From Girardia tigrina (taxonomy: Eukaryota), in contig MQRK01246015.1 in assembly GCA_001938485.1 (NCBI GenBank), forward strand, positions 1 through 52,635: a stretch of DNA of 52,635 nucleotides, written 5' to 3'. Made by a program: the position numbers and the translations under genes. The number at the start of each line of letters is the position of its first letter. The stretch's first letter is position 1. Shown one piece after another: positions 7,696 through 43,360 of this stretch. The notes beneath the pieces were generated by a model. That model was not told where the DNA came from, made no database searches, and was given only the letters and a program-made list of their open reading frames with translations.

Positions 7696-8203
7696 GAAAT
7701 TCTTCGGACAGAAGTAAATTAAAAAACGATTTTAACTAATAATTTAAAAGCTTCAACCTTTTTAAACTAATTTTTTTATTGAACAGTAAAAATGTAAAAA
7801 GTAATACCTCGAAATATTCTATTTAAGAAATTTTATCATTGAGAGTTTTCTAGTATTAAATGTAATGCACAAAATTTTTTTTTATCACTGAACTTTTTCT
7901 GGGATAAATATAACGAACAAAATTGACTTTTTCAAATAAGAAAAACATTTAAAAAGTTTATTATCAAATTCAATTTTTTAACACACATTTACTTTAAATA
8001 TTTGTAGTAAAATTTTGAATATCTTTTTATAATTAAAATTACAAAAACCTTTATTTATCGAGACAAAAAATATTTATATATTACCTTTAATATCATTAAA
8101 AAACAAAAACAAATTAAAAAAAGCTCAAAAATCCTAAATTTGTTTTAATAAATCAATTTCGCTAATTGTAAATATTCAAAATCAACAAACACGCTTTTAC
8201 CAA

Positions 8204-14355: not shown

Positions 14356-17300
14356 TGTAGAGAATGACAATGAATAACAAGTTCCTAAATTGTATTAAAT
14401 AGAAAAAACACGTTTTTCACAAAGACCGGAATAATTAAACAAAATATAAAAATCGAATTAACGAGATTATTATTTTAGATTATATCATCTCATCGCACAT
14501 CCCAACCAGATTCGTCCGTACCCGAATCTCCATCTACGACGTAGTCATCCAAGTATTTAGGCCTTCTTCGCACACGCTTCATATGGGTAGTTGCTGGTTC
14601 ATCGACTTCTGACTCTGTGTCCCAAGACAAAGCTGTGGCCTTAACGTTCTCGCATTCGACTCTTCTCGGCCGTAAATCAGCAACATGCCGAGGGAACCTC
14701 GACCCATTACAATCCACTAAATATTTACAGTATGATAATTTTTTAATACTTGACCCTTTAACCATTGTTTCGTGCACCTTGTGCTTTCCATTGGTTTCAC
14801 CCAGACTAATTGATAGTCACAATACATTGTACCCTTTGTAGTGCCCTCTATCTCATTGTCACTTTCATGGCTTACAAGTTTCATACATTTATAACTGTAT
14901 ATCATCCAACTTGGTGGTTCTTTGTTCTCCGACAGCGTATTGTTGTACCACCATACTGCTTCTGCAATTGTAATGTTTGATCTCGCCGCAATTCTTTTGA
15001 TCATCCTATGGTTTCTTTAAACGATCCCGTTCCCACCAGGTCTATTGCTCGCTCGATAAATTAACTCTACTCCCCATCGATTGAAAACCTCAACAAACTC
15101 ATTTGAGTAAAAAGTGGTGTAATTGTCTACTAACAATTCGCTGGGGGCTCCGCGTTGAAAAAAATATAGAATCTATTACCGTGGAGATGGAGTACGAACT
15201 TTCGTCATCAATTTCTTTCCAAATTGCAAATCTGGATGGTCCACAATCGATTAAGCTTAAATACTTCCTGTCGTTGTATTTTGTCCAATCGATTACCAAT
15301 CTATACAAATTCTCCCTTACTGCCACGCAACCGTGATTCCATTTTACCGGTGCGGGATCAATTGACTGGCATTTTTGACATTTTGAAATCATGTTCGTGA
15401 TATCTTTATCCGTTACTTGAATGTTTTCAATCCCACAGAGAAATTTCATTCGTTTCGCTCCCAAATGGCATTTTTATGAAGGTTATCTAATCTCTCAATT
15501 TCACTTGTCGTGGTCACGCAGCATACGTTTTTAGTTAATGCCTTCGATATCCTCGTCATCTCATCCGCTTTATTCAGACTGCTCGCTACGAACTCTATCT
15601 TTATCATTATGTTAAAATCATCACAAATTTCCTTAAAGATTGATAACCGCCGTCTGATAAGCAATTCTGAAAAGGCGCTCGTATTCAACCTAAATTTACT
15701 TGTGATCGCGTCATTCACCCAGGAGACAACTGATTTATTGTCACACTTTATCGTGATGTCCGTCATTCCCCATTTCGCGCACAAATTAAACCCTTTCACG
15801 ACTGCCTCCAGCTCAGCGATATTTATATGTCTTGAATCGTCTTTTTTCCTCAACCATGATCCTTCTTCGATAATTTTACCATTAACTTCCAGTAATACAC
15901 CCATCGCTATTGAGCTTGCATCACACCACAAAGTGCCCACTTTACAATCGCCGATGCTTCACGTGCCACGATATGGGTCATTTTCTTCTATCCTTTCCAA
16001 AATCCATTTTACCTTCTCAACCACTGATTCGTCCACCGGCGAATCCCAATCCCCCTCCGAAGTTCGTTTGAGGAAGGAACACGCCAATCGTAACCATAAC
16101 GCTATGGGGTAAATGCCAGTGAGTTGTCCACACAGAGAATAAAGCTCTCGTCGCGACATCGATTCGGATAAGTGTTTGACCCGTATTCGGTTCGATCGGT
16201 CCCACATGATGCTCCCGTCAATGTTTTTAACATCCACTCCGAGAACTCTTACTTTTCTGACATCATTTACGCGCTCGGGCTGTTTGCTCTCTAACCCAAA
16301 TTTCTTGAACAAACATCTCACTTCATCCGCATTAACCTTGGACTCATCTACAAAAATATCATCAACGTAGGATCCAGTGGCAGCATCAATCGTTTGATCG
16401 GATGACAAGACTTTTCTCACAATTTCCGTCATGATGGTAGGGGCTGTATTTAGACCGAATCCCATCCGTGTTAACGCGAACTTTTTTCCGCTGATAATAC
16501 ATGACTGAAACCGCCACATGGCGGGATCAACATGAATTTGCATGTATGCATCAGATAAGTCCAAAATTGCAAAACTGTCACTCTTCCTTTTCCACTCACG
16601 TAACTTTTCTACACAAACGTCCGAAGAACCGCTGAAAACATCGATATATTTGTTCAATTCCCTGAAATCGAACACAGGTCTTATCTTATCCTTATTCATC
16701 TGGTCTATACCATAAATTGGGATCGACCCCACTGACGCACCAATTTTCTCGTCGTCATACTCTATTAAGTACCTTTTTTCCATCCATTTATTTAAAATAT
16801 CCATCGTTGATTTGTCTTTTGGTTTTGACTCTTTCAATACGGTTTTTCTCCACGGTAACTGATCGGGGACATCCGATTTCCAATCCCAAGAAACGGATTT
16901 GTTTGTTTTATGTTTGTCGAAACGAATCCTGCAATTATGTTTCTTCGTGCCTCCCTCTTCAGTAATTCTAGTCCCAGACAACTTGTCACTTGGACCCGAA
17001 CTACAAGCATTTACTAGATAGGAACTCACCCCAAACTTTACACTTCCATTATGGAATACCATTCCTCCTAATTTCGCAATCACATCAACACCCAACAATA
17101 AATCCTTATTTTCCGGCAACGTATTCATTACAATACAATTTTCGGTTACCTCTTTATCATCCACGTTGATCCTTGCTGTACATATACCCACAAACACTCG
17201 AGACTAATTAGCCAGAGTAACTTACTCTCAATTCCGCTGCATCAACGGTCCTTCCACATTGCATCTTCACGACCGATCGCGAACACTCGGTATCCACTAA

Positions 17301-17910
17301 TGCTCTGCAGTTTTTTCCATTGACGATACATCGAATAACTGGAAGCGCCTTTAATCCATCCGAGAAGCCGCTGACGACTCCTCGCTCACGTTTCCCACCC
17401 GACAGAATCTAGCAATGTGTCCCTTCCTTCGACATCTAAAACATATAATTTTTCTCTTGGAAGAACTTTTAGGACGATCCTCTTCCGTCTTTTGAACACC
17501 CTTTTCATCAGCTGCATACGGGTTTTTAACGCTCTGATCCGCGCTAACGCCGCTACGACTACGTCCTTCCAGCTTATTTATTCCCTTCCGATCGTATAAA
17601 CTCACCATTGACGTATGAGTTGTGTTTTTTGCAATACTAATATACGTGCGGGTCACTTCCACTATTTCACTCCATTCTCGGACTCCTCGTTTCTCGATTT
17701 CCAAAGCGATTTCCGTTGGTAATCCGGCTAAAAATGCAGCGATTTCTAGATTGTCGACCGTTTTTACCAATTTCGACACTTCCGCAGCGTACTTGTCAAT
17801 AGTGCTGAAATCTGAATATTTAATCTACTGTAATTTACGATACGCCTCTCGCGGTTTCACTCCAAACGCTGCATTCAATACTCGAAAAACTTCATCAATA
17901 TTCGATTGTT
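14356..17910 (-). mobile_element. LTR retrotransposon A (short-LTR clade), 5'-truncated: gag(CCHC)-PR-RT-RH-IN plus 3' LTR 14356-14499
   Basis: CFRCRRKGHIARFC; ALVDTECS; DLSDAYMQI, MGFGLNTAP, YVDD; WCDAS...HINIAELEA; HH..CQKC integrase; PPT-like TCTGGTTGGGA; TG..CA LTR. Confidence 0.9.
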
Positions 17911-18199
17911 GAAACTGGTAAACAACAGCGGAAACTGGCAAACAACAGCTGCAGGAGCCAATCGCAGTGCATTCGTTGGTGTTACAGACGTCCCAGTTTT
18001 TTCTAGATGACGACGGATCAACTCGAACCTGGTTTGGACTAATAGAGTGTTGTCTAAAAAGTGTGAGGAGTCAACATGTGCATTTTCTACACCTCACAGC
18101 CGCATTACCAGTCGATCAATTACAGGTGATAAACAAAGAACTACATGTGATCACTGCACATGACCGATTATGCGATCAGTTGTGCCACCACTTTCTCGT

Positions 18200-18425
18200 A
18201 CTGTCTGACCGACGCGTATAGGGCCAATTCCCCGAGTGAGTCTTGCGGCGCCTGACCGCTCTTCCACTTCCATACTGCTGTCCGCGAACGGCAGTCGAAC
18301 TCGGCCGAAAACACAGCATCATCGATTCACTTTCGTGCTGGTCGCTTCGCTGTGCTCAATGCCGCCCGGTGATCGATCCGTCCAAACGTTTGGGCACCGC
18401 TTCAGCTAGGCACCAACACGATCCC
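18200..18425 (-). mobile_element. Fragment of the PR-RT junction of a clade-B-like retroelement
   Basis: FSAEFDCRSRTAVWKWKSG resembles FPVKFDGESWTVAWKWK in element B. Confidence 0.55.
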
Positions 18426-21400
18426 TAGTTGAAAATTGTCGAGGTGACAATTCTTCGGGCATTTATGATCTGGGCGACAATTCGTCAAAGATTTTTTGTC
18501 GAGGCGACAAATTTTTTCCATTAATCGATATTTTTAAACTGGTGAGGACCATCAATATACACCCAAAATAATAAATAATGAAAATAATTTTAAAACATTC
18601 AAAAATATTAAAGAAAAGCTATGGGGCACAACACCAAGTATTTCGGAGAATACTTCCAAGGAATCACCAACAATTTTAAGATGGATTAAATTTTTAAATA
18701 ATTCTTAAATTTTGTGTAGCGACAAAATCCGAAAACAAGTCTTTATAATAAATAAGAATTTATTTTACTGCAATAATCTTTCGTTCGACTCAAATTTCCC
18801 GCCTAATTTATACGATTACATAAACAATTACGATTAATTGTTCATTTATATATTATCATTTGCTCTCACACTTCGTCTTGCCCTTAAGGCACATATATAC
18901 ACACCGCTCATGCATATGGGGGCTTTTTGTGTCGCTGGGTTCTGCAACCCTACACACACACAAAGTTTTTGAAGCGGGTCGGTCGAACAATCATTCGTTG
19001 TGACCGCAATTCTTCTTTCTCACCCGATTGTTCTCCTCCACTCTCTAAATCGGTTTCCGTCTCTGTCTTCTAATGCGCGTCGTCTTCTTCGAACTAAAGC
19101 TGTTGTAACTCATTATCGGTTGCTCATGGTTCTCTCTCAGTCCATGAGGCCCTCCGTTGTCAGCGCTTCGTCGTCCTCCGAGGTGCGCCTGACATATAAC
19201 CCTGTTGATCACCACTTGCTGATGAAGATGGACCTCGCCCACGACAGCGCATCGCCATCGCTTTGTACACCTTTGGTTCACCGGTTTCACAAACACTTCA
19301 TCGCCCGCTTGCAACTCCGAATTGTTCTTGACCTCTATCACTTTTAATATTCGGCTCGCAAAATCCCTCGGCAGTAGCAGCCGCCTCTGCTGTGCGAACA
19401 CTGTAGATGCAGGAATTATGCCAGCTGAATTTGGCGTCGCGTTGTACCAAGCTAGCATGTCATCGATTGATCCCCCGCTTCTTGCTGCCCTGCGCCATAT
19501 CGTTCGATGACAACGCTCGCCGATCCCGTTTCCACTCGACCGATTTGCACATCAAAACATGATTACGACCCACACTCCATTCAGCAATTCTCGGATTGCT
19601 GTTCCCCGATTGGTTGTGAAATTGTCCATCAGCAGTTCTCGCGGCGGCCCGAATTCAGAAAATATTGCCCTGAGAGATGCATACAGCTCTTCATCGCTTT
19701 CGGATCTAATTTCTCGCCCCACTGAGGACAGTCCTGGCCCGTAGTTCACCGACGTCATTAGCTTCCCTTCAGTGGTGTGCGTTACATCCATTGCAAGCCT
19801 GTGCTATGTTCATTTCACCCTCAGCTCGCCTTTCTCCCATTTCACTGCTGCGGAATCAATTGACGCACACTGAGAACACTTGTTTACAACCGCTCGGATT
19901 TGACTCTCATGTACACGGCCAGGGCCCCATAGTCTTCCGTCAGGAATTTCATTCTTTTCACTCCGAAATGGAGAATGTTGTGGAGTGTTTCTAGACTATC
20001 TGATGTCCCGTGCTCTACTTCAATTCCAACGGCCGCCACTTTCAGTGGCCCTTTTGCTAGTGACAACCATTCATTAGGTACTGTCATGAGGCAATCTGCT
20101 TTATTCTCCGCTGAACTCACTAACTTATATGTCACATTCAGTCGTTCTCCTTCAATTGTTTTGCTAATGATACTTATACTTCGTTTCACCAGAAGCTCGC
20201 TCATTCCTTTGGATTTGACTGGTCCGTCGCCCCTCAACAAATTTGCCATTCATCTGAAAACTGTGGTGGAGTCGGTCATGACCTCAAACTCGTCCATGCC
20301 CAATGTCACCGCCGCTTTAACTACTTTGATCTCTGTCTCCAGTTCTGCCAAGTTTACGTGCGCTGCGTCGTCCTCTTTTCACAGCAAAGTTGCATCCTCG
20401 ACCACTTCTTCCCCAATCTCTACAGAGATTCCAGTTGCAAGAGAACACGCATCGAACTTCACACACGTCCGCGTGTGAAGTTCGGAATGTTCCATCTTCC
20501 GGTTACCGGGTCCTTGCTCTCCAGCTGTTTCTCTAGCTTTTTTGAGATTTCCATCACATGCCAATCTAGAGACTCGTCCCATCCGCTGCCACTAGCTGCT
20601 TTGCAAAAACTACACGCTGACCTTAACCAACCGCCAACCGGGAAATGTCCCACTAGTGGACTAACCCAGGAGAAAAGTTTCCGCCCCGTCAACTGATCTG
20701 GTAGTGATGGGACTTTGCCGTCTCTGAACCATCACAGTTCACCTTTGGATTCCCGAACAGCGAGCCCGAGTACCCTTCCGCCGTTCATTTCGACTGGTAG
20801 TTTGGATTCAAGGTCAAACCTGCTGAAAACTGCAACCACTTGCTGCGCAGACACTTTGCTGGTGTCGACTATAACGTCATCGTAGTACGAATACGTTGCC
20901 ACTACCACCCTCTTGTCGGATCTGAGCACGTGGTTCATTATGAATCTGATTATTTTCGGTGCCCCGTTCAACCCGAAACCCAGTCGCGTCAAACACCATT
21001 CTTGATTTGCGATCTTGATCACCTGGTAAGGCTACAGACTCTGATCTATTTTTATTTGGAGGTACGTACACCTCAGGTCTATTACTTCTAGTGCCTTCCC
21101 CATTCGGTGGCACTTGCGTAACTTCTCTATGCACACCAGGCTATCAGTGGTATGACTCGACACGAAGTCGTTTATCGCCCGGTAGTCCAGAACCGGTTGC
21201 ACTTTCCCTTTGGCCGCCTGCAAGACCACCATGACTGGCAATACCGCTTTTGCTCCACCATGGAAATCTATGAACCACCCCTTGCTCTTCCACTCGGCCA
21301 ACTCCTGACTCATTTCCTCTTCGAATTGCCTTGCAGACGTATATGCAGCGATCCCCCTTATTGGTTCCGGATTTCCATTTCCACGCCACTGTCCATGATT

Positions 21401-23056
21401 CGCCATCGAACTTGACTGGAAAATCTACGTCTACCAACTGCGCTGATGCTGGTAGTCCCGTTACACAGTTAATTACACTGGTAGTCCCGATGCTCAGTGC
21501 AACCGAATCTCTGGACCTTGACCCCTCCTGGCACCCACACGCCTCCAAGCTTCTCTATGATGTCCATTCCGAGAAGCATCTCAACCCTCGAAGCTATGAC
21601 CTCTGGCACCACCAGTATGTTGCAATCGATTCGTCTTCCACCGCACTCGATCGTTGTTGCTACTCAAAATCTCACGCTGACAATCGAGTCAGATCAAGAG
21701 CCGTAATGATCTGCACTGTTTCCTTCACCAGAATGAGTTCAGATTTTGGGACCAATGTCTCTGCGACAGTTGTGGTAGAAAATCCTGTGTCGACGATGGC
21801 CCTCACCGCCCTACCACCCACGGTTGCCGGGATGATCATTATTCGCGCGTCTCAGAGTCCAGGTCCTCCACCCGCTCAGCAGTATGAGCCTGATGATCAT
21901 TTCCCGCCGGTTTGGACGTGACCATCAGCAGACGATAAACAAAGAACTGCCTGTGATCACTGCACATGACCGATTATACGATCAATTGTCCGATCATTAC
22001 TCGGTTACCGCTCGGTACGATCATTATCCGGCCGCAATTGTAGCATTGCAGACTCCTTGGACCGCCTTGGTCGGTTACTGCTCTTAGCTGCCCTCTTCCA
22101 GTCGCACATTCGCGTGCAACGTGCCCGCTCCATCCGCAACTATTTACAACATCAATGAGTTTTACAACATTTATTAATATCACAAGTGCATTCACAATTT
22201 GACATTTTTCTTGATCGATATATTTCTGAGTTCATTCTAATTATTTTCAATAAATGAAAATCTGTTAATAAAAATTATTAAGAATCTAATTGGTTAAAAT
22301 TAAATCTAAACATTTTTTAAAAAAGAACATATTAAATTAATATATAAAATTTTAAATTACATTAAAAAATAAATAATACATTCACAAATTATTTTAAAGC
22401 TTTTTACTTTAAAATTAAATTAAATTATTTTTAATTAGTAGGAATCAAAGTAAATACCAATTATCGATCTGTGTAGGAGAGACACATTCCGAATCAACAT
22501 AAAACATGCACAATATCAACACACGATTCAAAACATTCCTCACAGCAACAAAAGAATTTAAATACGCCGGCCGGTGCCAAAACCCGGGCTGATTGTCCCC
22601 CCGGCCGCGCCACGGCTGCAATGACTTCAGTGACTCCTCGTGCCACCGTGACGTGTATTCGGGCCAGTCAGACCAGTCAATACAGGTCTAGCGCTTTTCT
22701 CAGCGCCTCGGTTTAGACACTTTTCATGGCCGCCTCGGGTATTCCGTTTATAAACGCTTGAACTATGAATGCTTCCCCACTGCCAGCTCTCCCGAAAATG
22801 ACGGCGGCCATCCGTTTAAGCTCCGCCATAAAATAATCCACGCTCTCGCCATTTTCCAGACTACGCTTCAGTGAGTGCTGCAGTGCTCTTTTCGAAATCT
22901 TTTCTCATTGGTTCGTGTGATATTAAATGAATTATTTAATAAAATATTGAATTTAAATAAAAAGTGCTTGTTTAAATATTCAAAACATGATAGTTTTCAA
23001 ATATATGTTTATTACTATTGAATCTTAATTTTTAATTCGATTATATATATATAACA

Positions 23057-23071
23057 TGGCGTCACGAGCAG
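23057..23071 (+). promoter_or_regulatory. Primer-binding site of Gypsy E, complementary to a tRNA-Ser-like 3' end
   Basis: TGGCGTCACGAGCAG directly follows the 5' LTR; metazoan tRNA-Ser(CGA) ends ..CGTGACGCCA. Confidence 0.75.
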
Positions 23072-25327
23072 AAAAAAACAGCTTCATGGAGGAATTTCTG
23101 TTTAAAGAAAAGGAAGGTAAACTTTTTGTTTTTAAAAAAACATTCAGCGAACCAAACGAAAATTAGAGAACACCTGAAAATGTATTGGAATTCATCAAAT
23201 TATTTACGTTTGGTGAAAACGAAAAAAAAGGATGAATTGCAACTTTTCCAAAAATATTTTGATGATTTAATCAATAAAGAAATCAAAAGCGATCCATCAT
23301 ACGATTGTGGATCCGAAAATCTTGATGATTACATTCAACGAATGTTTAAATTATTAGAAAAGAAGGAGTCAAAAATAAGCAATATCAAACCAATATTTCA
23401 GATAACTCAGAATAAAAATGAAAATATCATAGAATACGCCAAAAGAATCCGCATATGAAGTTTGGGAATAAAAGAAATCAAGGAAGATATAATGATCGAA
23501 GCTTTCTTGGAAGGTTTGGCATCTAAGAAAATCGCAAAAATTGTCCGGTTATTTAAACCAAAAACATTAAAAGAAGTGATTGACCTTATAAAGGACGAAC
23601 AAGAACCAGAAAATATTTTCGAGAATGAGCAAAATTTTTATCACATTAAAAATGATCAGGAAAGTTTGAAACAGCTGAAACTTGAAAACGAAAAACTTCA
23701 GAATGAGATACGACAATTGAAATCGATAATATCGAGAATAAGAGAAAAACTTAAAACAGACAAGAAAATATGATCCAGTAAATATGACTAGAAATTTTCC
23801 TAAATATTCTATGGATAAAAGAGAGTGTTTCACCTATAAAAGGATATGACATATTGCTAAATTTTGCAGGGAACACAAATGTTACGGTTGTGGAGCGACA
23901 AACCACGTAATTCGAGATTGTGGAATAAAACGATTAAGATATTTTCAAGAAGATGAGCAAGAAATTTTAAGTAACAGTTTTAAGTAAGAAGTTTTAAAAA
24001 GAGATCAGAGAAGGAGAATAGTGAACTGCAGGATAATCAAATTAATATGATAAACAAGTCAGAATGGAACAAAGAAAAGTCAAAGGCCATTTTTATGAAC
24101 AAACCAACGTTGGAAGAAGCATATAGTAATTATATTCAATGTCAAGGAGCGCGGCCAAAAATAATTTGTATAAATACGAACCGACTTTAATATCAGAATC
24201 AAGACCCGATAAAGCGAGAAATAAACCGATCGTTCAGTGTAATACGACGAATATGCCAGTCAAAGTCATGTTCGACACAGGTGCTGACTTAAATGTCATC
24301 AGTCAAGAGTTGGTGGAGAAGATTTGTGAACGAAATCCAGACGTCAAAATTTATGATTCAAGAACCAAGANNNNNNNNNNAAATGGTACTACGGAAGAAT
24401 GCATAGGAAAGGTTCAACTTAATGTGGCAATCGGACCACATATTACAGCCCATGTTTTTGACATTATGCCTAAAATATTTCCTCACATTTTCATCGGGTT
24501 AAGAAGTATGAAAAAATACGAAATAAAAGTAAATGCTGGAGAGGATTGTATTGAAATACAGAATGTTAAGATTCCATTTATCTCAAAAACATTAACGGCG
24601 GAGTCTTTAAACTAGGATGGTTCGCTTTGGAGGGTCGTAATGCGGGGTTCAATCGGATAGAGACTCAAAATATCGATTTATATAAAATTATTGTATCAGA
24701 TAATGCTACTACGAGTGGTTATGAAGATTATTTTATTAAAGGAATGATAGTGGACAGTTACAACGAAAGAATGAGTGATGAAAACCGAGAATTTATTTTT
24801 ACAGGAGAAAAAGAGAAACTCAGCGAAAAAGGCCTGATGGCAATGGATAGCCTTATCAAGTGTTATGATGGATATGTTTGAATCAGATTAACTAATATTG
24901 AAGGAGGAAGAAGACAGATACGTACTGGGATGACCTTGGGTTATGTAGAGGTATATCATGAAGATAAACAAACGACAGAAAAAAAGATCAATATACAGCC
25001 TAGCGAAGGAGAATCAGAAAAAAAGAGAAAATCGAAATTGAAGAAACGCTGAAGAGCATTGAAGAATCCATTAAAGCACCGAATGAACAGGCAAGAAATA
25101 GTCTAATGGAAATTATACGGGCAAATAAAGATATTTTTAGTACGTATAGACTGGATATCGGGAAAAGTGATCTAATTGAACACACCATTGAGACCGAAAA
25201 TGAAAAGCCAATTAATTTTCAACCTAGAAGGATACCCCAGGGACTTGAAAAGAAAGTACAAGTAATGATCGAAGAAATGGAAAAGAAAGGAATTATCAGA
25301 CCTAGCACGTCCACTTGAAACTTTCCA

Positions 25328-26710
25328 GTGGTAGTGGCTAAGAAAAAGAATGGAGATATTCGACTATGCGTAGATTACAGAGCTCTGAATGCGAAAACAA
25401 ACAGACCGATATTTCCAATACCATCCTCGGAAGAGATTTTCGATAGTATTGGGGGATCCAAATATTTTTCTACTCTCGATTTATCAAGTGGGTATCACCA
25501 AGTACCAGTGGCAGCAGAAGATGTACATAAGACTGTATTCAGTACCAGACACGGTCAATACGAGTTTCTCAGAATGCCATTTGGGTTATGTGGTGCCCCC
25601 GCAACTTTTCAGAGATTAATGAACTTAATTTTAAGAAAAGAAAATTGGATCAACTGTGTTATATATCTTGATGATATTTTGATTTTTGGAAAGACGATAG
25701 AAGAACATAATCAAAGATTAGAAATGGTGTTATCGAGAATAAAACAAGCAGGACTAAAATTAGCTCCAACAAAATGCCGGTTTATGCAAACAGAGATAAA
25801 ATATTTAGGTCATGTAATCAACGAAGATGGCGTGAAGACAGATCCTGGTAAAATCAAGGGCATCAAAAAATGGAAGTTACCAGACTGCAAAAAAGAATTA
25901 CAGACATTCTTAGGATTTTGCAACTATTATCGCAGGTTTATCAAGAATTATGCTGAATTGTTTAGTCCTTTAAGTTCGATGTTAAAAAAAGATTCAAAAT
26001 TTGTGTGGACAGACGAATCGAGAAGTATGTTTTACAGACTCAAGAAACATCTCACACAACCTCCTGTGTTAGCTTTACCTATAAAAGACGGTAAATATAT
26101 TTTAAATACGGACGCATTCCATGATGCAATTGGTGCAGTGTTATCACAAATCCAAAATGGAGAAGAACGAGTTATTTATTATGCCACAAAAACACTTACT
26201 AAGAACCAAAGACAATATTGTATTACTCGAAAGGAACTGCTAGCCATCCATACGTTTGTTTTGAAATTTAAACATTACTTGATAGGATCACATTTTCTTG
26301 TCAGGACGGATCATCAGGCACTAAAATGGCTTTTAAACTGGAATAGCCTAAACATATCACAGTACTGTATTTGGAAATCAGAACTGGAAATATTTGATAT
26401 GGAGATAGAATTCAGAAAAGGAAAGGACCACAATAATGCCGATGGTCCTTCAAGACCAGCACCATGTGAACAGTGTGCCCTACAACATGAAGATCCAAAA
26501 AAGAAAAGAAACGTAAAAAAATATCACCCAGTGTACATAGAAAATGGGAAAACTCACAGCGAGTATTCGGAAAAGATTGTCAATGAGATTCAAAAACAAA
26601 ATAACGAGAGTCCAAACGAGTGGGAGCAGGAAACAGATGAAGAGTTACGGAAGTTACTGAATCCAATAACTTACAAAGACGAGAAAAAAATATCAATCTG
26701 GTGGATATGA
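25328..26710 (+). CDS. pol: Gypsy RT-RNase H segment (part of disrupted pol)
   Basis: RLCVDYRALN, FSTLDLSSGYHQ, MPFGL, YLDD, TDA..AIGAVL, TDHQAL. Confidence 0.95.
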   Translation: MVVAKKKNGDIRLCVDYRALNAKTNRPIFPIPSSEEIFDSIGGSKYFSTLDLSSGYHQVPVAAEDVHKTVFSTRHGQYEFLRMPFGLCGAPATFQRLMNLILRKENWINCVIYLDDILIFGKTIEEHNQRLEMVLSRIKQAGLKLAPTKCRFMQTEIKYLGHVINEDGVKTDPGKIKGIKKWKLPDCKKELQTFLGFCNYYRRFIKNYAELFSPLSSMLKKDSKFVWTDESRSMFYRLKKHLTQPPVLALPIKDGKYILNTDAFHDAIGAVLSQIQNGEERVIYYATKTLTKNQRQYCITRKELLAIHTFVLKFKHYLIGSHFLVRTDHQALKWLLNWNSLNISQYCIWKSELEIFDMEIEFRKGKDHNNADGPSRPAPCEQCALQHEDPKKKRNVKKYHPVYIENGKTHSEYSEKIVNEIQKQNNESPNEWEQETDEELRKLLNPITYKDEKKISIWWI

Positions 26711-26762
26711 AATCAGAATTCGTGGGGATATTATATATTTATTTAAGGATGGAATCTATAGA

Positions 26763-28069
26763 GTGATAGTGCCAAAACACAAAAGACAGGAAATAATTTG
26801 GAACTACCACCGACAATTGGGACATCCAGGAATGAAAAAAACAGCAGATGTTATTGCAAGAAATCATTACTGGGTGAACATGATTGAAGACATAAAAGAA
26901 ACATTAAGTAAATGCATACCATGCATTAGAAACAAAAATATCAATGGAAGAATTAAAGCGCCATTACAGAGCTTGATTACCAAAAAACCGTTTGAAGTAA
27001 TCGGAATAGATATCACAGTACCATTTACAAGAACGAGGAAGGGATACCGATACATCCTTGGTGTGATTGACTATTTCTCGAAATATGTATGCTTAATACC
27101 GATGAAGACAATAACAGCAGAAAAAGTGATAAAAAATTTATGGATTCATTGGATATCAAAATATGGGATTCCAGAACGAATACACTCGGACAGGGGTACT
27201 AATTTTACATCAAATTTATTTATTGAACATTGTCGAACACTGGGAATCAAGAAGACGTTTACTTCCCCATATTATCCACAGGGAAATGGATTAATAGAAA
27301 GGTTGTTTCAAACGGTAAAACCGATGATCAGCGCAGTGATGGAGGAAAGAAAAATTCAAGACTAGAATGAAACACTACCATTCATAGTGAACTTGGAATA
27401 CGAACAACAAAGCAAAAAACCACAAAGTATTCTCCATATGAGGTGTTGTTTGGACGCAAACCAAGAATCGACTTCATTCACTCTGAGCCTTTCTCGGACA
27501 CGGAATATCACAACACCAATGAATATGTGAATGAAATGAGAAGTAAGATAAAAATAGTTCACGAATTTGTTACTAGAAATTTGAGGGACCAAAATGTAAA
27601 AGATAAATTAAGGTATGACAAGCATAGAAGGAACGCAAAACTACAAGTCGGGCAGAAAGTTATGGTCAAAAATCAAGGAGCACAAGGATTTGAAAATAAA
27701 TACATTGGGCCATTCGTTATCAGGAGAATTATCGACGACTGGACATTCATTTTATATCATGAAGAAGCGAATAAAGAAATACAACATAACTACAACCAGA
27801 TCAAAGAAGTGAGGGAAACCGAAGATCAGAGTGGGAAACAAAGACTCAGACCAGTATACGAACTTGGAGAACAAAGGGCAAGGAAACAGCTCAGGTCAAA
27901 GAGAGAAGATACCCGATCAGAAATACGCGGAATCCAAGACCGATATACAGATGATTTCGAAGAGGGGAATGTGATATTAAATGAATTATTTAATAAAATA
28001 TTGAATTTAAATAAAAAGTGCTTGTTTAAATATTCAAAAAATGGTAGTTTTCAAATATATGTTTATTGA
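26763..28069 (+). pseudogene. Gypsy integrase (two ORF pieces split by a stop and frameshift)
   Basis: HRQLGH...CIPC, VIDYFSK, HSDRGTNF, YYPQGNGLIER, YIGPF. Confidence 0.9.
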
Positions 28070-28999
28070 ATCTTAATTTTTAATTCGATTATATATATAA
28101 CAGTTCGCTAAACCCTCGAAAAACGACTGCTGCCTCTCCTGATAGAGCCAGTGGCAGCATTGCTTGTTTATCTTCGTTAAGCATTGCGTTGCATTCGCGG
28201 AATCGTTCGATCCACACGGTGACGTTCTCGCGTGCGTCGAATGCAGGAATCAATTTTAAAGTCTTCATGTGCCGCGATAGCTTGTAGAGACAAAATCAGA
28301 AAACAAGGCTTGATAATAAATAAGATCTTCCGCTCGACTCAAATTTCCCGCCTAATATATACGACTAATTTAAACAACTACGATTAATTGTTGATCTATT
28401 TATTATCATTTACTCTCCCATTTTGTTTCGAAAAAATCCTTTATTAATTTTTTTAGATATTTTAAATAAATTAATAAATTTAATAAATTAATAAATTATT
28501 TTATTTTAATTCCAGAAAATTATTTTGAATTTTTGAATATTATATAAATTAATATCGGAATCATTTTTGTGTGTTATCGATGAGAACTTGTAAAAATAGT
28601 ATATAATATTTATAAAAATGATTAAATTTTTATTGGAGGCCAAACATTAACTAATTCAAAAATGTATTATAAAACATAAATATTACTACACAACAATTAA
28701 AATGAAAAGTTGTGAGCAATACCTCGTAAATAATATATTACGTTTTGAGCATCATAGTTTCTCATGGTGACATCCTATTATTCGTTTTTTTAAGAAATTC
28801 ATTAAAATATTTTGTCTAAAATTTTTTTAAAAAATTTTGTCTTTATTCATTTAAATTGTCTTCCAATCATAAATGGCTGACTAATTTTCGCCACTACCAA
28901 TAATCCTCGATGTATTGTAGCCCGGACAAAAAAATCCCGTATGAATTGTCAATCGGATCATAAATCCCCGAGGAATTGTGTCCCGACAATTTTCCACGA

Positions 29000-32132: not shown

Positions 32133-32788
32133 TCTTATAAAAGCCCAAGTCACTCACTGCCTGCCTGCCTGCTTCACTAACGCTGACGTAATAATAGTAT
32201 TATTTGTTGAAAAATAAATGTGAAAAAATATCAATTTATTATGANNNNNNNNNNNNNNNNNNNNNNNNNNNNNNNNNNNNNNNNNNNNNNNNNNTATCAA
32301 TTTATTATGAAAAATTCTGTATTTAATGTGAAAAATATCAATTTATTATGAAAAATTCTGTATTTAATGTGGAAAAATATCAATTTATTATGAAAAAATT
32401 CTGTATTTAATGTTGAAAAATATCAATTTATTATGAAAAATTTTGTATTTAATGTGGAAAAATATCAATTTATTATGAAAAATTCTGTATTTAATATGAA
32501 AAACATCAATTTATTATGAAAAATTCTGTATTTNNNNNNNNNNNNNNNNNNNNNNNNNNNNNNNNNNNNNNNNNNNNNNNNNNNNNATATGAAAAACATC
32601 AATTTATTATGAAAAATTCTGTATTTAATGTGGAAAAAATATCAATTTATTATGAAAAATTCTGTTATTATTTCAAAAATTTACCTTACAGCATTAGTGA
32701 GGCAGGCAGTGAGTGACTTGGGCTTTTATAATATAAAAAAATTGAACCCCCGCCAAGAGAGGGCCGCGAAGCGGGCCGAGCGCGCTAG
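32133..32788 (+). mobile_element. Non-autonomous Helitron with internal inverted repeats and minisatellite
   Basis: A|TC start; GC hairpin GGCCGCGAAGCGGGCC shortly before CTAG|T; inverted repeats 32135-32185 / 32690-32731. Confidence 0.7.
32215..32665. repeat. ~41-bp AT-rich minisatellite (AAAAATATCAATTTATTATGAAAAATTCTGTATTTAATGTG), gapped
   Basis: Multiple tandem copies read directly. Confidence 0.95.
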
Positions 32789-35340: not shown

Positions 35341-37383
35341 AAATAATTTTTAAAAATTATTTAAAAATTAGATTTATTTAACGATCATAGCAATTCTAAA
35401 TATTGGTCACTTAAATCATAGATAATCAAATTTTGAAGTATTAGAATAAAATATTTTAATTATTTCTCAAATTCATTATCTATTAATAAGTTTCCATCCG
35501 GATGAATTTTGTTATTAACAAAAATCATCATTTTATTTAAAAACAATAAAAAGCCATTTTAAAAGCAATAAATGATAAATTAAGTTAAAATTTTTTTCAC
35601 GATCTCATAAAATTTTGAATATGTTCAGTAATAAATCAATTATACCTTTTACGCAATGTTCGGATATTGTTTATGAATATAAATATAATTTGAAATAAGT
35701 ATTCATTGATCTGAAGACGGCGGTTGATCCATCGAAATTTTTTTTTATAATTAGATTACTTTTGTTCTTATTATTTGTTGAATTAATGAATGCTTATTTG
35801 TTATTTTTGATTAACAGTATGAAATTAAATAGTGTATTTGACATAAACGATTATTTCACATAACATAAAAACAATGAATATTTCTCAAAAACTTAAATTC
35901 GAGAACAAATACTAAAGCATTTTAAAAATTAATTTATGATATTGACAAAGTAAAAGCAACTTTAAAATAATGTATTTTTTCGAAATTTTTACAATTTTTT
36001 TAAAACAACACAAAAACAATATTTATTTTTAATATTATATCCAATTTAATCGAAATTTAATACATTATTTAACTAAAATTTATCGAATTTGTAGGGCCTG
36101 ATTTGACCAAGAAAAATATTCGTAATAAAATTTTAAAAATATATAAAAAAAATTAACACTTAAAACTTAAACAAAATTATGAATTTATTATTTAATGAAA
36201 TATTATTTACCGGATATTCCGGGATATTTAAAGTTGAAAAATATTTTAAAATTAAAAAAGACATTTAAATAAATATCCTAAATTGCTTAAGCATGGTAAA
36301 AAATATTAAAAAGATTTTTAATAAAAAATGATAACAATATAAAAGTAGAAAATTTTTCAATTTTATTTAAAGTCTCAAGAAATTTTGAAAATTATAGACA
36401 TATTATCTAAACCTCGAGATATTATCCCTGAAAAAATCTTTATGTGACGGGTTTGTCTGATAATTATTGTGTGTTAATTGAACTTCGTCGAGTATGTTGT
36501 TCTCTCCCGTTTAATGTAATAATATGTACGACGATCTGAATTGAAATTATTTAATGATATTGTTAGGGCACTGGTGTTATTTATATTAATTTATAAAAAA
36601 TGAAAAAAACTGTTTTGAATTAAATATAATTTTATTAACAATAATTAAAAGCTAATTTACAAATTAGATCAAAACGCTATTTCTTCACACAATATAATAT
36701 GGTATAATGTTGGACAATTACTCTCGGTATTAGACTTTTCTTTGTAGTCTTAAATAATGAACTTTCAATTTGTAATTCCTCGCGCTTTTATAGATTTAGA
36801 GTTTTTAAACTTGAAATCTCCGGAAAATGAGGTGGGGATCTCGGTATTCAAAAGTTATTTTCCTTTTTTTCAAAAATTGAAATTATTCAATATAAAGTTA
36901 CTTAAAATGACGTCAATATTATTGACTTTATTATTGAATCAATAAGACAAAATTTAATTGGTAACCAGACAATTCGACACAGACGATTCGACACACGTAC
37001 AATTCGACACAAATTTTTTAATTCGACACATTTTTTTAATGGGACAAAAATTTTATTTTGACATTTTTAAATTTCGATAGTTTTTTTAATTCAACACTTT
37101 TTTTTAATTAGACCAATAACTAAAATGAAATATTTTCATTATTACTACACATTTTTTGAAACTCGACATTTTCAATAACTATATTTTTAGTTAGACTAAT
37201 GAGTTATATCAATGAAAAAATATCCATTTAATATGAAAAAAATCAATTTTTATGAAAAAATATGTATTTAATATGAAAAATATGTATTTAATATAAAAAT
37301 ATCAATTTAATATGAAAAAAATCAATTTTTATGAAACAAATTTTTTAATTCGACACAGTAAAAGTTAATTTTTAACATTTTAT

Positions 37384-37655
37384 TCATTGCAGATTAACTA
37401 GCCAACGCAAGTATTTCAGTTTTTCATCATTCGATGCATTCAAATTGTATTCTTGCACAGCCATTGCAATAGCCTCACTCAATGATACATATTTTTTCTT
37501 TACAACTATAGGGCGACCTGACAGAGCATTTGCCAAAGTCAGTCTGCGACAAGCTATATTTCTTCCAAGTCCAAACACTGGGGTGGCTGCATTGAAATAT
37601 AGCATTAAGAGCATTGTGAAAACCTTCACAAAAATTTTTAGTTTTTGTAGTTTTT
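37384..37655 (-). pseudogene. MULE transposase C-terminal fragment
   Basis: TKNFCEGFHNALNAIFQCSHPSVW matches the TNNxxEGxH...HPxxW catalytic-Glu region, then frameshifts into ORF 37384-37629. Confidence 0.8.
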
Positions 37656-37674
37656 TTTAGTTAATGATTTAATT

Positions 37675-37711
<37 letters not shown>

Positions 37712-37886
37712 AGGACGTAATCAGCGCAAGCTAGTGACTTGCGCTTACTAAGAATTCCTCTTTCAAGTGGGATAATTTCAATCCACTATTCCTGACACGA
37801 CAGTGATTCAGCAGGTTACCCGGCCATTTCTAGCTAGGAATAAAACTCGCTGGTACTACCATTGTAGCGCGCGTGTACATCCAAGA
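37675..37886 (-). rRNA. 18S rRNA gene fragment (3' region), non-functional captured copy
   Basis: Universal SSU sequences CTTTGTACACACCGCCCGTCGCTACTACCGATT and CACGCGCGCTACAATG on the minus strand; small deletion and substitutions. Confidence 0.95.
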
Positions 37887-39317
37887 TAATCACTATTTAT
37901 ATGTTCGTATTTATATCGTTCATAGAGATATAAATAATAATTATAAACTTATAAAAAATCAATAACTTTGAATTTTTTTTGACTTGACTAGTGCTCTCGT
38001 ATTCGAATCCCAGATCTTCTTTGAAATCATCGTCTAAATCATCCTCGTAAATTATATCATGATCTTTGCCGACAATGTGAGACGCATCGATATTATTCTC
38101 CAATAAATGATCGGTATTATTCATTTAAACTAGAATTTTTATCTGAAAATTGATTTCAAAATAGAATTTTTTCTACTAAATTCGTTAGACCTTGCACAAT
38201 ATCCTGATCCATCACGCTTTAATATGATTGTAAATAATATTTCTAGATATTGTAATCAGTGCCACATAATTGTCACAACAAAATTGAAAAAACCGGACTT
38301 GATAAACAAAATAACAAAACATTTCAAATATCATTTATCAAACCACATCTTGTCGTAACGAATTACATGTCACGTATAATGCATTCAATAACACAAAATA
38401 TTTCAAATGAACATAATATACCAAGAGCACCCTCAATATAAGTTGATAAGAAATATTTGAGAATTGATTTTTTTCATATTAAAATGATATTTTTATATGA
38501 AATACATATTTTTATATTAAATACATATTTTTCATGTTAAATACATATTTTTTAATAAAATTTGATTTTTTCATATTAAAATGATATTTTTATATGAAAT
38601 ACATATTTTTATATTAAATACATATTTTTTTCATAAAAATTGATTTTTTTCATATTAAATTGATATTTTTTTTATATTAAATACAGAAAAACTCATTAGT
38701 CTAACCAAAAATATAGTTATTGAAAATGTCGAGTTTCAAAAAATGTATAGTAATAATGAAAATATTTCATTTTAGTTATTGGTCGAATTAAAAAAGAATT
38801 GTGTTGAATTAAAAAAAAACTAATCGAAATTTTAAAATGTCGAAATGAAATATTTGTCCCATTAAAAAAATGGGTCGAATTAAAAAATTTGTGTCGAATT
38901 GTCTTGTGTCGAATTGTACGTGTGTCGAATTGTCATGGAACCAATTTAATTATGGTATTTTAAAATCTATAATTTCAATCTATAAAAAGAAGAATTTCTT
39001 AAAAAAGATTTTAGTTTGTGAAAAAAAATTATTTTAGTTTATGAAAAAATGATTGTATTTGTATTTAATTGTATTAATGCCTGATGTTTGAGATTTAAAA
39101 TAAGATATCCAATTTTTAATAAAAAAATAATATATGTATATGAAAATCATTAATAATTAAACTACATTAAAAATTAAATTTAAATAAGTTAAAAAATTTA
39201 ATTTAAGTAAAGTAAAAAAATGATGCAATTTCGGAGTCCCGGGATTATGGTTAAATTTGGTTCCAAAATTCCTGGATCCGAAAATACCGGGATTTGGAAA
39301 CCCTAGTTTAAAGTTCG

Positions 39318-42300
39318 TGTAACACGTGAAAAGTTTATTCTTAACACACTGTTTAATTGATAATATTTAAACAAAATATTTATCAAAAAAGCATATATTA
39401 AATATTTTAAATAATCAAAATATCTCATATCCAACACTCCCACCAGATTCGTCTACAGAAGAATCTGAATCGACAATGTAATCATCTAGATAAGACGGTT
39501 TTCGTTTTTCTCTACTAGACCTACTGTTCAATGATTTTTCCTCTTGTGTTTGATTGCCTGGCAGTTTCCTCCATATTCATGTAGTGTGACTTGAAATTTT
39601 CAACCAAGTCAGGCTGTCTGGGTCGAATATCTGGGATATGTCTTGGATTGTAAAATCCGTTGCAATTTACTAGATATTTCCTTTGATCTATTCTTTTCAC
39701 GAAAACACCCTTGGCCCATTGCTGTGTACAGGGTGTACTGTACCGGTTTTACCAACACTAATTGATTCTCAATATAATCTGGATTTCCACAACACGGTTC
39801 CTTTTCACTTCTTCCAATTATATCTAACCCTATGGGCTATACAGCGCCGAGCTTGGTGTTTCCTTTCCTTCAGATGGCGTTATTTTACCACCATAAAGCT
39901 TCAAATATGCTGATATTTGATCTGGACTCAATTCTTTCGATTGTTCTGTGATTCCTTTCTATTATTCCGTTGCAGATAGATCGATTTATGGTACGACACA
40001 TGACTCGAACGTTCCACATTTTCATTAGCTTGTTGAATTCTACCGAATGAAATGTGGTATAATTATCGATGATTAGTTCCTTGGGAGACCCACGTTCACA
40101 GAACAAACTTGAGAATTCTGAGACAATTGACTTGACGTCTTCAGCTTAATTAATTTCCATATAGCAAAGCGAGAAGGACCACAATCGATTATACTTAAAA
40201 ATTCTTGTTGATTGTACTTTGTAACATCTGCAGCAAGTCTTGTCCAGTTTTTGTTGCCGCTTAGCCTACCGGTTTTCCATTTTACGGGTGCCGGATTGAT
40301 GGATTGACATTTTTGACATCTTGAAATCAGATCCTTAATATCCGTGTTTGACACACCTATTCCTTGCTTCGCACATAGATATCGCATTCTGTTTGCGCCT
40401 AAATGACACTTATCATGAAGTTGCTGCAGCTTGAGTAGATCGTCCATAACCATTAAAAAATAATTGCTTCTTTTTAATTGTTTTGGGATTCTTGTCAACT
40501 CGTCCGCCTTGTTATCTTCGCTACTAACAAACTCGATCTTCAACTCAATCTCATACTCCTGACACAGCTCCTTGATCATCGAAGTCTTCGTTTTATTAAA
40601 AGCTCAGATGAAGCCTTGGTATGTAATTTTTCGCGATCTGAGATTGTTGAGGTTAGCCACGAAATTACTGACTTATTATCTGATTTTACTATCACGCTCC
40701 TTAAACTCAATTTCACACATAAGTTTAAACCTTTTACAACTGCTTCTAGTTCTGCTACATTAATATGTCTAGAATCATCAGTTTTTTTCAACCATGATGC
40801 GTCCTTGATTATGTTCCCTTTGACTTCTAACGCTACACCAATGGCTATTGAAACTTGCATCGCACCATATAATACCTTCCCTGCAGTCATCAATGGCCCA
40901 TAAACCTCTGCAAGGATCACTCTCCCTCACTGTCTTTAAAACCCATTTAAAATTATTCTCATATTTAATGTTATTCTCAAATAATTCTTCGTCTATCTTT
41001 TCATCCCACCTTCCCTCACTAAGTCGTTTAAGGTATGAACAAGACGGACGTATCCAACTAGCTACCGGATGTATTCCAACTAATTGTCCGCATAACGAAT
41101 ATAACTCACGGCGTGAAATTGATTCCACATCCAGCTCATCCCTTAACTGATTGTCTCTCTTCCATCTCACTACATGTTGGTCCTTAAAGACTTTCATTCC
41201 TAAAACTTGAACCTCGTTGGCTTGTGACAGATTTTCCGGTTTCTTACATTTGAGACCAAAGTTATTGAGCACTTTTTCTCCTTTCTTCAACAGAAATGAA
41301 ACTTTCATTTATATAAATATCATCAATATAAGAGTCGGTTTAAACATTGCACCAACTATAATGACCGAAATCGTCAGGTGGATTCTGAAATTTGACACCA
41401 GGATGCGTGAAAATACCAAAAACCATCCTATTTAAAGCATATTTCTTGTTGTTAATGATACAAGATTGGTAACGCCACATCTCCTTATGAAAATGAATCT
41501 GCATGTACGCCTCTGACAAATCAAGCATTGAAAAAGTGGAACCCCTACGTCACATTTCGCGGAGCTTTTCTAAACATATATCCGCTGAACCATTATAAAC
41601 GTCCACGTAATTGTTTAATTTTCTAAAATCAAAAATGGGTCTTACCTTGGACTTATTGGTCTGCAATATTCCAAATATCGGTATGGATCCTATCGATTTA
41701 CCCATTTCTTTCTCATTGTACTTGATTAGATAATCCTTTTTTACCCAACCGTCTTAAATTTTCAACGTTGCAACATCTTTTAATTTGTTGTCCTTAAAAA
41801 CTGACTGCCGATTCAGAAGATGACTCGGAGCCTCACTTTTCCAATTCCATTTAATCGACCAATTTTCTTGAAACTCAATCTCAAAATTATGCTTTTTTAT
41901 ACTAACAAGAGGCGCATCCGATGCAGTACAACTCAAGCTACTATATGTCCCCTTTAATTTCTTCTTCACCGAACTCAATAACACCCTTATTTATTCTCAC
42001 GTCGCACAATTTACCTATGACATCTATACTTATTAAGATCCCTAAACCATACGGCAAATGTTCCATGACCGAACATTCCACCCTAAAGATCCTACCATTT
42101 ATAACCAGCCGCACTTCACCCAAACCCACTCTAACACCCTTTCAATTCGCCAAAACCATACTTTCTCCGTCAGAAAACAGCATGCAATCACTAACTAACC
42201 TTTTTAAAACAACCGTTTTCGAACAACCCGAATCAATCAATGCGATGGGCGATCTGTCATCAACGGTGACGATCATAATCAGCAACACCAGCAACTCATC

Positions 42301-43360
42301 TCTTCGTTTCCCGATCGATATGACCAAGTTTCTGACATTTTTAGCATATTGTATGTCTGTTTGATTGCCACTGAGAACCCTTATGATGCTTCCTTTCCTC
42401 CGATTCGGTGTCTCTCTCACAATAAACATATGATCCTTTGTGAAGATTTTCTCTGCGTTTATCGAGTTTTCTCTGACCTCCAGATCTCCCTATTTCTTTT
42501 TTGTTGTTTCCGTGTTGTATTACTGCCATTGAACCCTGTAATAAACCCTTTTTAATCCCCAAATACATATGGCTATACTCAATAATTTCGGATAATGGTT
42601 GGTCGCCGGCCCATTCCAAATCCACCGCAACTCAAAAGGCAGTTCAGTCATGAAGGCAGCCTTTGTTAGATCGTCGACCTTTGATGTTAGCATCTTCACC
42701 TGAGACGCGTATTCATCGATAGTCTCGCCCTCGTGATACTGTAAGTTTATCAATTGACTGTACGCAGAACGTCTAGTCAGGCCGAACAAATTGTTCAGTA
42801 TCTTGAAGATCCGATCGCAGCTGCTTTGTGACTTCTCGTCCGATTCCATAGTAAAAAAGGGAGATACGGGGCTGGATCAGTAATCTTCTGGATTCTCATG
42901 ACCATTTCAAATTTCTTCTGCCAGATCTTGAAGCTAACGCTTCCATCGAATTTTTCCAAAAACTCCAAAACGATTTTCATATCATTCATTATTCCCAAAT
43001 AGCTTGTAACACGCGAAAAAATTATTTTCAACACACAGTTTAATTGATAATATTTAAACAAAATATTTATCAAAAAGCATATATTAACCCTTCGTAACAT
43101 GGTGTGACACTTCTGTATCAAACCATTGTAACTCTTACAAGATCTCTAAATATTAACATATCACATTTTAAATCACTGTTGCATATCTGTTACACACCGA
43201 TCTATACAACATCGATGATTTATTAGTACCTAAAGGTGGCGTTGGTGATAGGATGATGAATTTTGCGAAGTTTTTTTTAATTTTAAGATGATGTTTTTTT
43301 AAGATATTGAGTTACGAAGTGTTAAATATTTTAAATAATCAAAATATCTAATATCCAACA
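39318..43360 (-). mobile_element. Full-length decayed LTR retrotransposon C (same family as A); 3' LTR 39318-39436, 5' LTR 43005-43360 split by a MITE
   Basis: Matching LTRs; TSD GTTCG (39313-39317 / 43361-43365); gag LEKFDGSVSFKIW; IDSGCS; DLSEAYMQI; WCDAS/HINVAELEA; CQKCQSINPAP integrase. Confidence 0.9.
43088..43321. mobile_element. piggyBac-type MITE inserted in the 5' LTR of element C
   Basis: TTAA TSD (43084-43087 / 43322-43325); TIRs CCCTTCGTAAC / GTTACGAAGTG; the LTR is contiguous at this site in the 3' copy. Confidence 0.9.

Follow-up and report, generated by a model that had tools for sequence, protein, structure and literature searches.

Three primer types are named for LTR retrotransposons in the available text of PMC6317226, that is, a whole tRNA, a half tRNA cut in the anticodon, and a self-primer. 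The half-tRNA (Hemivirus-type) elements include Drosophila copia, yeast Ty5, plant Osser, Bryco, Bianca, fungal Copia, and Helenus, which use a 5′ tRNA fragment as primer and have no TGG (PMC6317226, PMC10886601, and PMC10275265, each as far as its accessible text goes); in fungal Copia several tRNAs prime through the anticodon loop (PMC10886601, accessible text), and Candida elements have internal tRNA sites (PMC4139406, accessible text). In the Tf1/sushi group (Tf1, Tj1, Tcn1, and TAR), the 5′ end of the element RNA pairs beside the LTR and needs cutting (PMC4600332, in its available part). Canonical priming, which is that of retroviruses and most Ty3/gypsy elements, uses the 3′ CCA end of a tRNA, paired with a TGG site adjacent to the LTR, and the choice of tRNA is family-specific. 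The Tf1 self-primer is 11 nt long, and RNase H is reportedly needed for its release.

The retrotransposon lineage described here would resemble each of these systems in part. As in the half-tRNA systems, the putative primer would be a 5′ tRNA fragment, and no TGG is present; however, the primers of those systems end in the anticodon arm and their sites pair internally in the tRNA, whereas the site here pairs with tRNA nt 1–12, ending in the D-stem, and half-tRNA users are Ty1/copia elements with integrase (IN) before reverse transcriptase (RT), whereas the order here is protease (PR)-RT-RNase H (RH)-IN. Two marks of copia/Ty5-type half-tRNA priming, anticodon-arm complementarity and the IN-before-RT order, were looked for and not found. 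The geometry beside the LTR would be the same as in Tf1/sushi elements, but their primer is their own transcript, whereas here it would be the 5′ end of a host tRNA, and the LTR contains no complement of the site. As in canonical priming, the primer would be tRNA-derived, LTR-adjacent, and chosen by family; in contrast, the opposite end of the tRNA is matched, no TGG is present, and a cut would be needed.

The window, i.e., the whole stretch of 52,635 nt of Girardia tigrina DNA that was analysed (contig MQRK01246015.1), holds elements B, C, and D of this lineage, and a Ty3/gypsy element A, which served as control with its TGG-type primer site (Table 1). Read on the minus strand, positions 28290–28266 consist of ..TCTCTACA (LTR end), AGCTATCGCGGC, AC, and ATG. 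It had been predicted that the B 5′ LTR, ending ..TACA (28283–28286), is followed directly by a 12-mer, with the gag ATG 2 nt further on and no TGG, and this was confirmed. The LTR end is taken as real because the two LTRs align (121 of 159 columns identical, with a 19-nt indel) and TTTTG flanks both ends of the element. That the gag ATG belongs to the nested element A was ruled out, since A stops at 28102. The remainder of B is disrupted by stops, frameshifts, and an AT-rich insert.

Table 1. Retrotransposon features of the window
Feature	Position	Strand	Remarks
Element D	14356..17910	minus	B's lineage; sister of the C family
Element B, LTR retrotransposon	18715-28420	minus	LTR pair and 5-bp target duplication TTTTG
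Target-site duplication of B, TTTTG	28421..28425, partner 18710-18714	none	
B 5′ LTR	28283..28420	minus	TG..CA, 138 nt; primer site flush at LTR end
B primer-binding site (putative), AGCTATCGCGGC	28271..28282	minus	exact complement of host tRNA-Phe nt 1-12
B gag start	28103..28268	minus	ATG 28268-28266; interrupted by nested element A; N-terminus resembles that of other family members
B remainder	18871..22915	minus	gag, zinc knuckle, protease, RT, RNase H, integrase, polypurine tract
B 3′ LTR	18715..18870	minus	from alignment with 5′ LTR
Element A, ordinary Ty3/gypsy	22916..28102	plus	nested within B gag; target duplication GTTCG; TGG-type primer site at 23057
Element C	39318..43360	minus	B's lineage; 3′ LTR 39318-39436; 5′ LTR 43005-43360 holding an insert; target duplication GTTCG
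Element C candidate primer site, decayed	42993..43004	minus	family form complements host tRNA-Lys(UUU) nt 1-12

Several further features of the window were observed. The unrelated elements A (22911-22915/28103-28107) and C (39313-39317/43361-43365) share the duplication GTTCG, which is probably a coincidence. The gag of element D is broken at 17911-18400 by a stretch related to the B gag zinc knuckle, within which 18128-18198 is 87% like 21934-22003 in B gag; the 5′ end and primer site of D were looked for within the window and were not found. A MITE- or foldback-like unit at 36948-38954 has long inverted repeats (~400 nt, 88%) flanking 1.2 kb, with internal 20-nt tandem units that are present too at 32290-32700, and at 8138-10654 an open frame of 838 codons contains about ten diverged repeats of ~130 nt.

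In element C, the predicted junction of ..TTACA with a 12-mer, AGCTATTTGGGA, is present. As written, AGCTATTTGGGA was not enriched in the host genome (307 matches vs. 619 for the control, the first 30 being unrelated), and it was rejected as the functional site of its family. It is a decayed copy, three changes away from the family form AGCTATCCGGGC, which fits tRNA-Lys(UUU), not tRNA-Phe, and was used instead. The form AGCTATCCGGGC was exact at 18 of 29 C-family sites and had one change at 10 more, the 29 sites coming from 28 of 30 loci, one of which yielded two.

The 12-mer of B was abundant in the 1.43-Gb host assembly, with 1122 copies of AGCTATCGCGGC vs. 8 of the reversed control. All 30 fetched loci were junctions of an LTR end with the 12-mer; CA preceded in 28 and an ATG followed within 32 nt in 29, the gag ATG lying 0–32 nt after the site. 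Base 13 was free at these 30 loci (A 17, T 7, C 6), and the 40 nt upstream fell into 20 LTR-end clusters among 29 loci. These diverse LTR ends with one 12-mer indicate that the 12-mer is conserved even where LTR and gag have diverged. When the four middle bases were left open, 3825 matches were obtained vs. 458 for the control; by hand count of the 100 listed among these 3825, 59 had the Lys form, 20 the Phe form, and 19 were one change away from either, with one at two changes and one unrelated.

To avoid circularity, a sample blind to the site was drawn, comprising 60 of 150 host copies found by the RT-thumb family DUF7047. Gag starts were located in 30 of them, where the site was the exact Phe form in 9 and had one or two changes in 11, was AGCTACTCGGCC in one and AGCTATCATCGG in two, and was decayed or partly deleted in five; a recognisable site was absent at 2 of these 30 starts. 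The 30 copies without a located gag start were mostly truncated; a site was recognised in 4 of them, by motif search in 3. From 40 longer host stretches, 13 two-LTR alignments were obtained, in 10 of which the site directly adjoins the LTR (gap 0), the other 3 being partial or gap artefacts. One young copy among the 10 (99.2% LTR identity, TAAAC duplication) has an exact Lys site and no TGG, so the doubt that young copies might carry a TGG primer site was answered by this 12-mer. No TGG site was found at the located gag starts of host copies and metagenome loci; CA..TGG flags at L266 and L171 were dismissed as canonical sites, being the ATGG of a probable gag start. Canonical 3′-CCA priming, in which a TGG 0–5 nt after the 5′ LTR complements a tRNA 3′ end, was rejected, as no such arrangement was found.

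A site flush with the LTR and the lack of TGG are also features of Tf1-type elements (PMC4600332, available text), so that self-priming from the element transcript, possibly via a spliced LTR, had to be considered. However, the longest perfect complement within 600 nt upstream did not exceed 7 nt at any of 104 sites (104/104), and one 12-mer is common to unrelated LTRs. For B, the maximum complement in both LTRs is 4 nt, which would not suffice even if the primer were spliced from two pieces, and self-priming was excluded for this element, a spliced self-primer included. The original prediction had likewise seen no LTR complement for self-priming, which for the lineage is extremely improbable.

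The predicted identity of the B 12-mer also held: AGCTATCGCGGC is the exact complement of nt 1–12 of host tRNA-Phe, which is known here from broken gene pieces. Four host loci open with GCCGCGATAGCTCAG and continue as the tRNA-Phe 5′ half, and other loci hold a tRNA-Phe 3′ part that overlaps the 5′ piece and ends in TCGCGGC, the acceptor strand pairing with GCCGCGA. An intact tRNA-Phe gene was not found in the host assembly, where three patterns gave 4, 3, and 8 matches, all of them pieces, which look like derivatives of a tandem array. In L095, L098, and L106 (contigs C181207, C56195, and C241992), several tRNA-Phe pieces are interrupted at one common point, where the anticodon loop begins, by related inserts of 1.5–1.8 kb, possibly a tRNA-targeted element. 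In a quick tree, the RT of B groups with the Phe-type copies of the host.

Intact host genes were found for other site forms. The form AGCTATCCGGGC is the exact complement of nt 1–12 of intact tRNA-Lys(UUU), and AGCTACTCGGCC that of tRNA-Ile(AAU), with 85 matches vs. 1 for the control (78 element sites and 7 tRNA-type starts). The Tyr form AGCTATCATCGG gave 183 matches vs. 8; the 100 listed among these 183 comprised 34 element sites with AGCTATCATCGG, 1 element site exactly fitting the major tRNA-Tyr, and 53 major and 12 minor tRNA-type starts. It pairs at 12/12 positions with the major tRNA-Tyr, with one G·U, and exactly with a minor variant; when 12 copies of this variant were fetched, 4 could still be recognised as tRNAs. 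These Tyr genes contain an intron and are named Asn by ARAGORN. Host tRNAs do begin with the complementary 12-mers, as the Phe pieces and the intact Lys, Ile, and Tyr genes attest. At the acceptor-stem G·U pairs of tRNA-Lys and tRNA-Ile, the site is complementary to the 5′ strand rather than identical with the 3′ strand; Tyr is an exception. No matches to Thr, Ala, or Cys tRNAs, which have the same sequence at positions 8–12, were seen in the samples read.

The best duplex of the site with the whole Lys, Ile, and Tyr tRNAs was again nt 1–12, and adding the complete tRNA together with the LTR end to the calculation did not extend the duplexes beyond nt 12. Pairing spans tRNA nt 1 to U12, with U12 opposite the base adjoining the LTR. 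The site:tRNA duplexes were calculated at -23.5, -23.4, and -18.5 kcal/mol, and the fold of the tRNA itself is about as stable. Extension of the pairing into the pre-tRNA leader was rejected, since base 13 is independent of the leader base. In one host family, AGCTATCGCGTG, which makes 10 of 12 pairs with tRNA-Phe, is fixed in 5/5 blind-picked copies; it had 87 host matches, none tRNA-type (control, 121), and a search for a host tRNA beginning with CACGCGATAGCT found none. Therefore, full 12-bp pairing is not required. In this family (L243, L248, L257, L279, L281, and L359–L373), the gag ATG stands directly after the site, and the quick tree pairs the family with the Ile family as sisters. Evidently, the primer sequence is not copied back into the site; neither the Tyr nor the AGCTATCGCGTG data gave a sign of such re-copying. 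The Ty1 primer is reportedly not inherited.

Sites of other hosts were examined in 69 metagenome loci, which a profile of 11 relatives had retrieved; several of these loci share a study of origin and do not count as independent observations. In 44 loci, a gag start was located blind to the site (25 gave none), and CA followed by AGCT(A/G) was found at 40 of these; two of the remaining four were decayed, one lay at a contig edge, and one had the site further upstream. Written as tRNA starts, the sites were GCCGAAATAGCT (12), GCCTAGATAGCT (11), GCCGCGATAGCT (5), CGCGTGATAGCT (2), and ten further forms seen singly, including GCCCGGCTAGCT and GCCCGGATAGCT. The first of these is the start of Drosophila tRNA-Phe (probe, PMC7038984, available part) and GCCCGGCTAGCT that of human tRNA-Lys(CUU) (probe, PMC8599901, available part), both from comparison species and not from the contig's own host; the 69 loci contain 0 tRNA genes. 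Variation was concentrated opposite tRNA positions 4–7, as in acceptor stems, with almost none opposite 8–12. Covariation across species was thus observed, in that the sites of metagenome contigs vary as tRNA acceptor stems do. In the quick tree, site types cluster, with several switches; this tree kept 68 of 98 rows, all lineage members without an outgroup, and shows clustering, not the order of events.

The first five site bases are nearly invariant at the metagenome gag starts, as would be expected if the 12-mer served as a signal in DNA or in translation (for integrase or as start-codon context) and its likeness to tRNA were accidental. However, the seven free bases are the complement of a host tRNA in the Phe, Lys, and Ile families; a chance match would have a probability of ~0.003 per family even if 50 tRNA starts are allowed for, and of ~3e-8 for the three, as rough values for families that are not fully independent. 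Because the sites covary with tRNAs, such a signal was regarded as refuted, and we consider it very improbable. The 12-mer that follows the 5′ LTR is likely the primer-binding site of this lineage.

The best explanation, which we consider reasonably probable, is that a 12-nt 5′ tRNA fragment ending at U12 primes, the cut being made probably after annealing by the RT-RNase H of the element. The element RNA would invade the acceptor stem and D-stem of the tRNA, its site mimicking the displaced 3′ strands. Pairing would halt at U12 because C13-A14-G15 of the tRNA are unable to pair with the LTR end, and a cut or trim between U12 and C13 would therefore be needed to leave a 3′-OH opposite the last LTR base, from which RT would then copy U5. 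As RT extends a 3′-OH at the LTR edge, the primer should end at U12, and the tRNA should be cut or trimmed in the D-stem. By analogy with Tf1, the element enzyme would make the cut, and the geometry would equal that of Tf1 self-priming, with a tRNA as the substrate in trans; at the sequence level, the RNase H of the lineage keeps D-E-D-D-type motifs (Pfam RVT_3). Of the earlier proposal that a ~12-nt 5′ tRNA fragment primes, the site and its tRNA complementarity stood, while the fragment and its cutting are deduced from sequence.

The same primer could also come from host nucleases, with 5′ tRNA fragments cut in the D-loop annealing to the site and being trimmed to U12 or used as they are. All the sequence evidence fits this source equally, a 5′ tRNA half primes copia (PMC10275265, accessible text), and a free fragment would spare the opening of a tRNA whose fold nearly equals the duplex in stability. 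However, the identical U12 end in four tRNAs of one host and in many hosts is more in keeping with a cut whose position the duplex sets. D-loop tRNA fragments of the common kind exceed 12 nt by a few bases, which are unable to pair with the LTR end; a host-nuclease source is considered unlikely. Little credence is given to a role of the intact tRNA, bound through its 5′ strand in packaging, dimerisation, or translation from the gag start, with priming left to the displaced CCA end or another molecule. The closeness of the gag ATG and the ten-pair family are in line with such a role, but it is U12 that lies flush with the LTR, no TGG accompanies any located gag start, and the variable end of the site is LTR-distal, as expected if synthesis proceeds from the 3′ end of the paired strand.

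Priming by a 12-nt 5′ tRNA fragment would be the property of a distinct lineage. Its members are ~3.6–3.8 kb long with LTRs of ~120 nt, and have one gag-pol frame of ~1150–1270 aa with zinc knuckle(s), PR, a weakly RVT_1-like RT, DUF7047, an RVT_3-type RNase H, and integrase. The PR-RT-RH-IN order was found in 8 long relatives as well as in the window, and the layout is of the Ty3/gypsy type (gag-PR-RT-RH-IN, TG..CA LTRs, duplication within 4–6 bp); in L340 and L341, the LTR of the Ile-type family seems to start with TA, not TG. A close relation of the RT-RNase H to Ty3 was rejected on PDB search, fold identity, and RNase H models. The best PDB match of relative P0002 was HIV-2 RT (2.7e-6), with Ty3 RT absent among the best 60 of 192 matches, whereas the RT of control element A matched Ty3 RT at 3e-74; the predicted fold showed 12–19% identity to all listed RTs; and the RNase H matched RVT_3, not the gypsy RT_RNaseH models, whose sole match was a second, fused RT in P0019. 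The RT of the D, B, and C lineage is at a similar distance from Ty3, foamy virus, and HIV, with a DUF7047 thumb and a cellular-type RNase H. The nearest features in the ESM Atlas were retroviral Pol clusters, which is a lead.

The lineage comprises 846 protein clusters at E up to 1e-30, with Hydra, Amphibalanus (barnacle), Trichuris (whipworm), Sycon (sponge), and Nymphon (sea spider) as named hosts, and no relatives were found among viral contigs in two scans. It is apparently deep-branching and without a published name that we found, and Repbase may file members under Gypsy. Troyka/Kuafuorterviruses are likewise a deep animal LTR lineage with one gag-pol frame, short LTRs, and the PR-RT-RH-IN order (PMC12440569 and PMC11673190, available text). 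However, Troyka has CG..CG ends and 3-bp duplications (PMC12440569, available text), whereas the present lineage has TG..CA and 5-bp ones, and the catalytic motif of Troyka/Kuafuorterviruses is IADD/VADD/LADD (PMC11673190, available text), whereas here it is Y/F-V/I-DD (YVDD, YIDD, and FVDD). Membership in Troyka/Kuafuorterviridae was rejected on termini, duplication length, and catalytic motif; the accessible main texts of PMC12440569 and PMC11673190 mention neither primers nor tRNA.

The original prediction was of a priming mode not known to be described, and the literature search agreed with it: it turned up no report of a primer site that fits the 5′ end of a tRNA, with Repbase Reports, subscription journals, and supplements lying outside the search. 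The 22 titles listed for five of the 12-mers and for DUF7047 deal with tRNA probes or unrelated work, and the accessible parts of PMC5408684, PMC12859917, and PMC4139406 hold nothing on a tRNA-5′-end primer type. It is put forward tentatively, as a proposal that might well hold but of which we are less than confident, that this is a pan-animal LTR lineage at superfamily level, defined by a fourth priming mode in which RT-RNase H would cut the tRNA after U12, a Tf1-type cleavage in trans.

The tRNA-5′-end site is real and lineage-wide, and likely represents a variant of tRNA-fragment priming with a Tf1-like cut, which is apparently undescribed. If true, this would be a fourth primer type, used throughout a lineage and bridging tRNA priming and Tf1 self-priming; it would imply that an RT or a host activity cleaves the D-stem of tRNA, and very short 5′ tRNA fragments would gain a concrete role. 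Primer-site searches based on tRNA 3′ ends would miss these elements, for which CA followed by AGCTA.. would be a simple diagnostic of a large neglected lineage.
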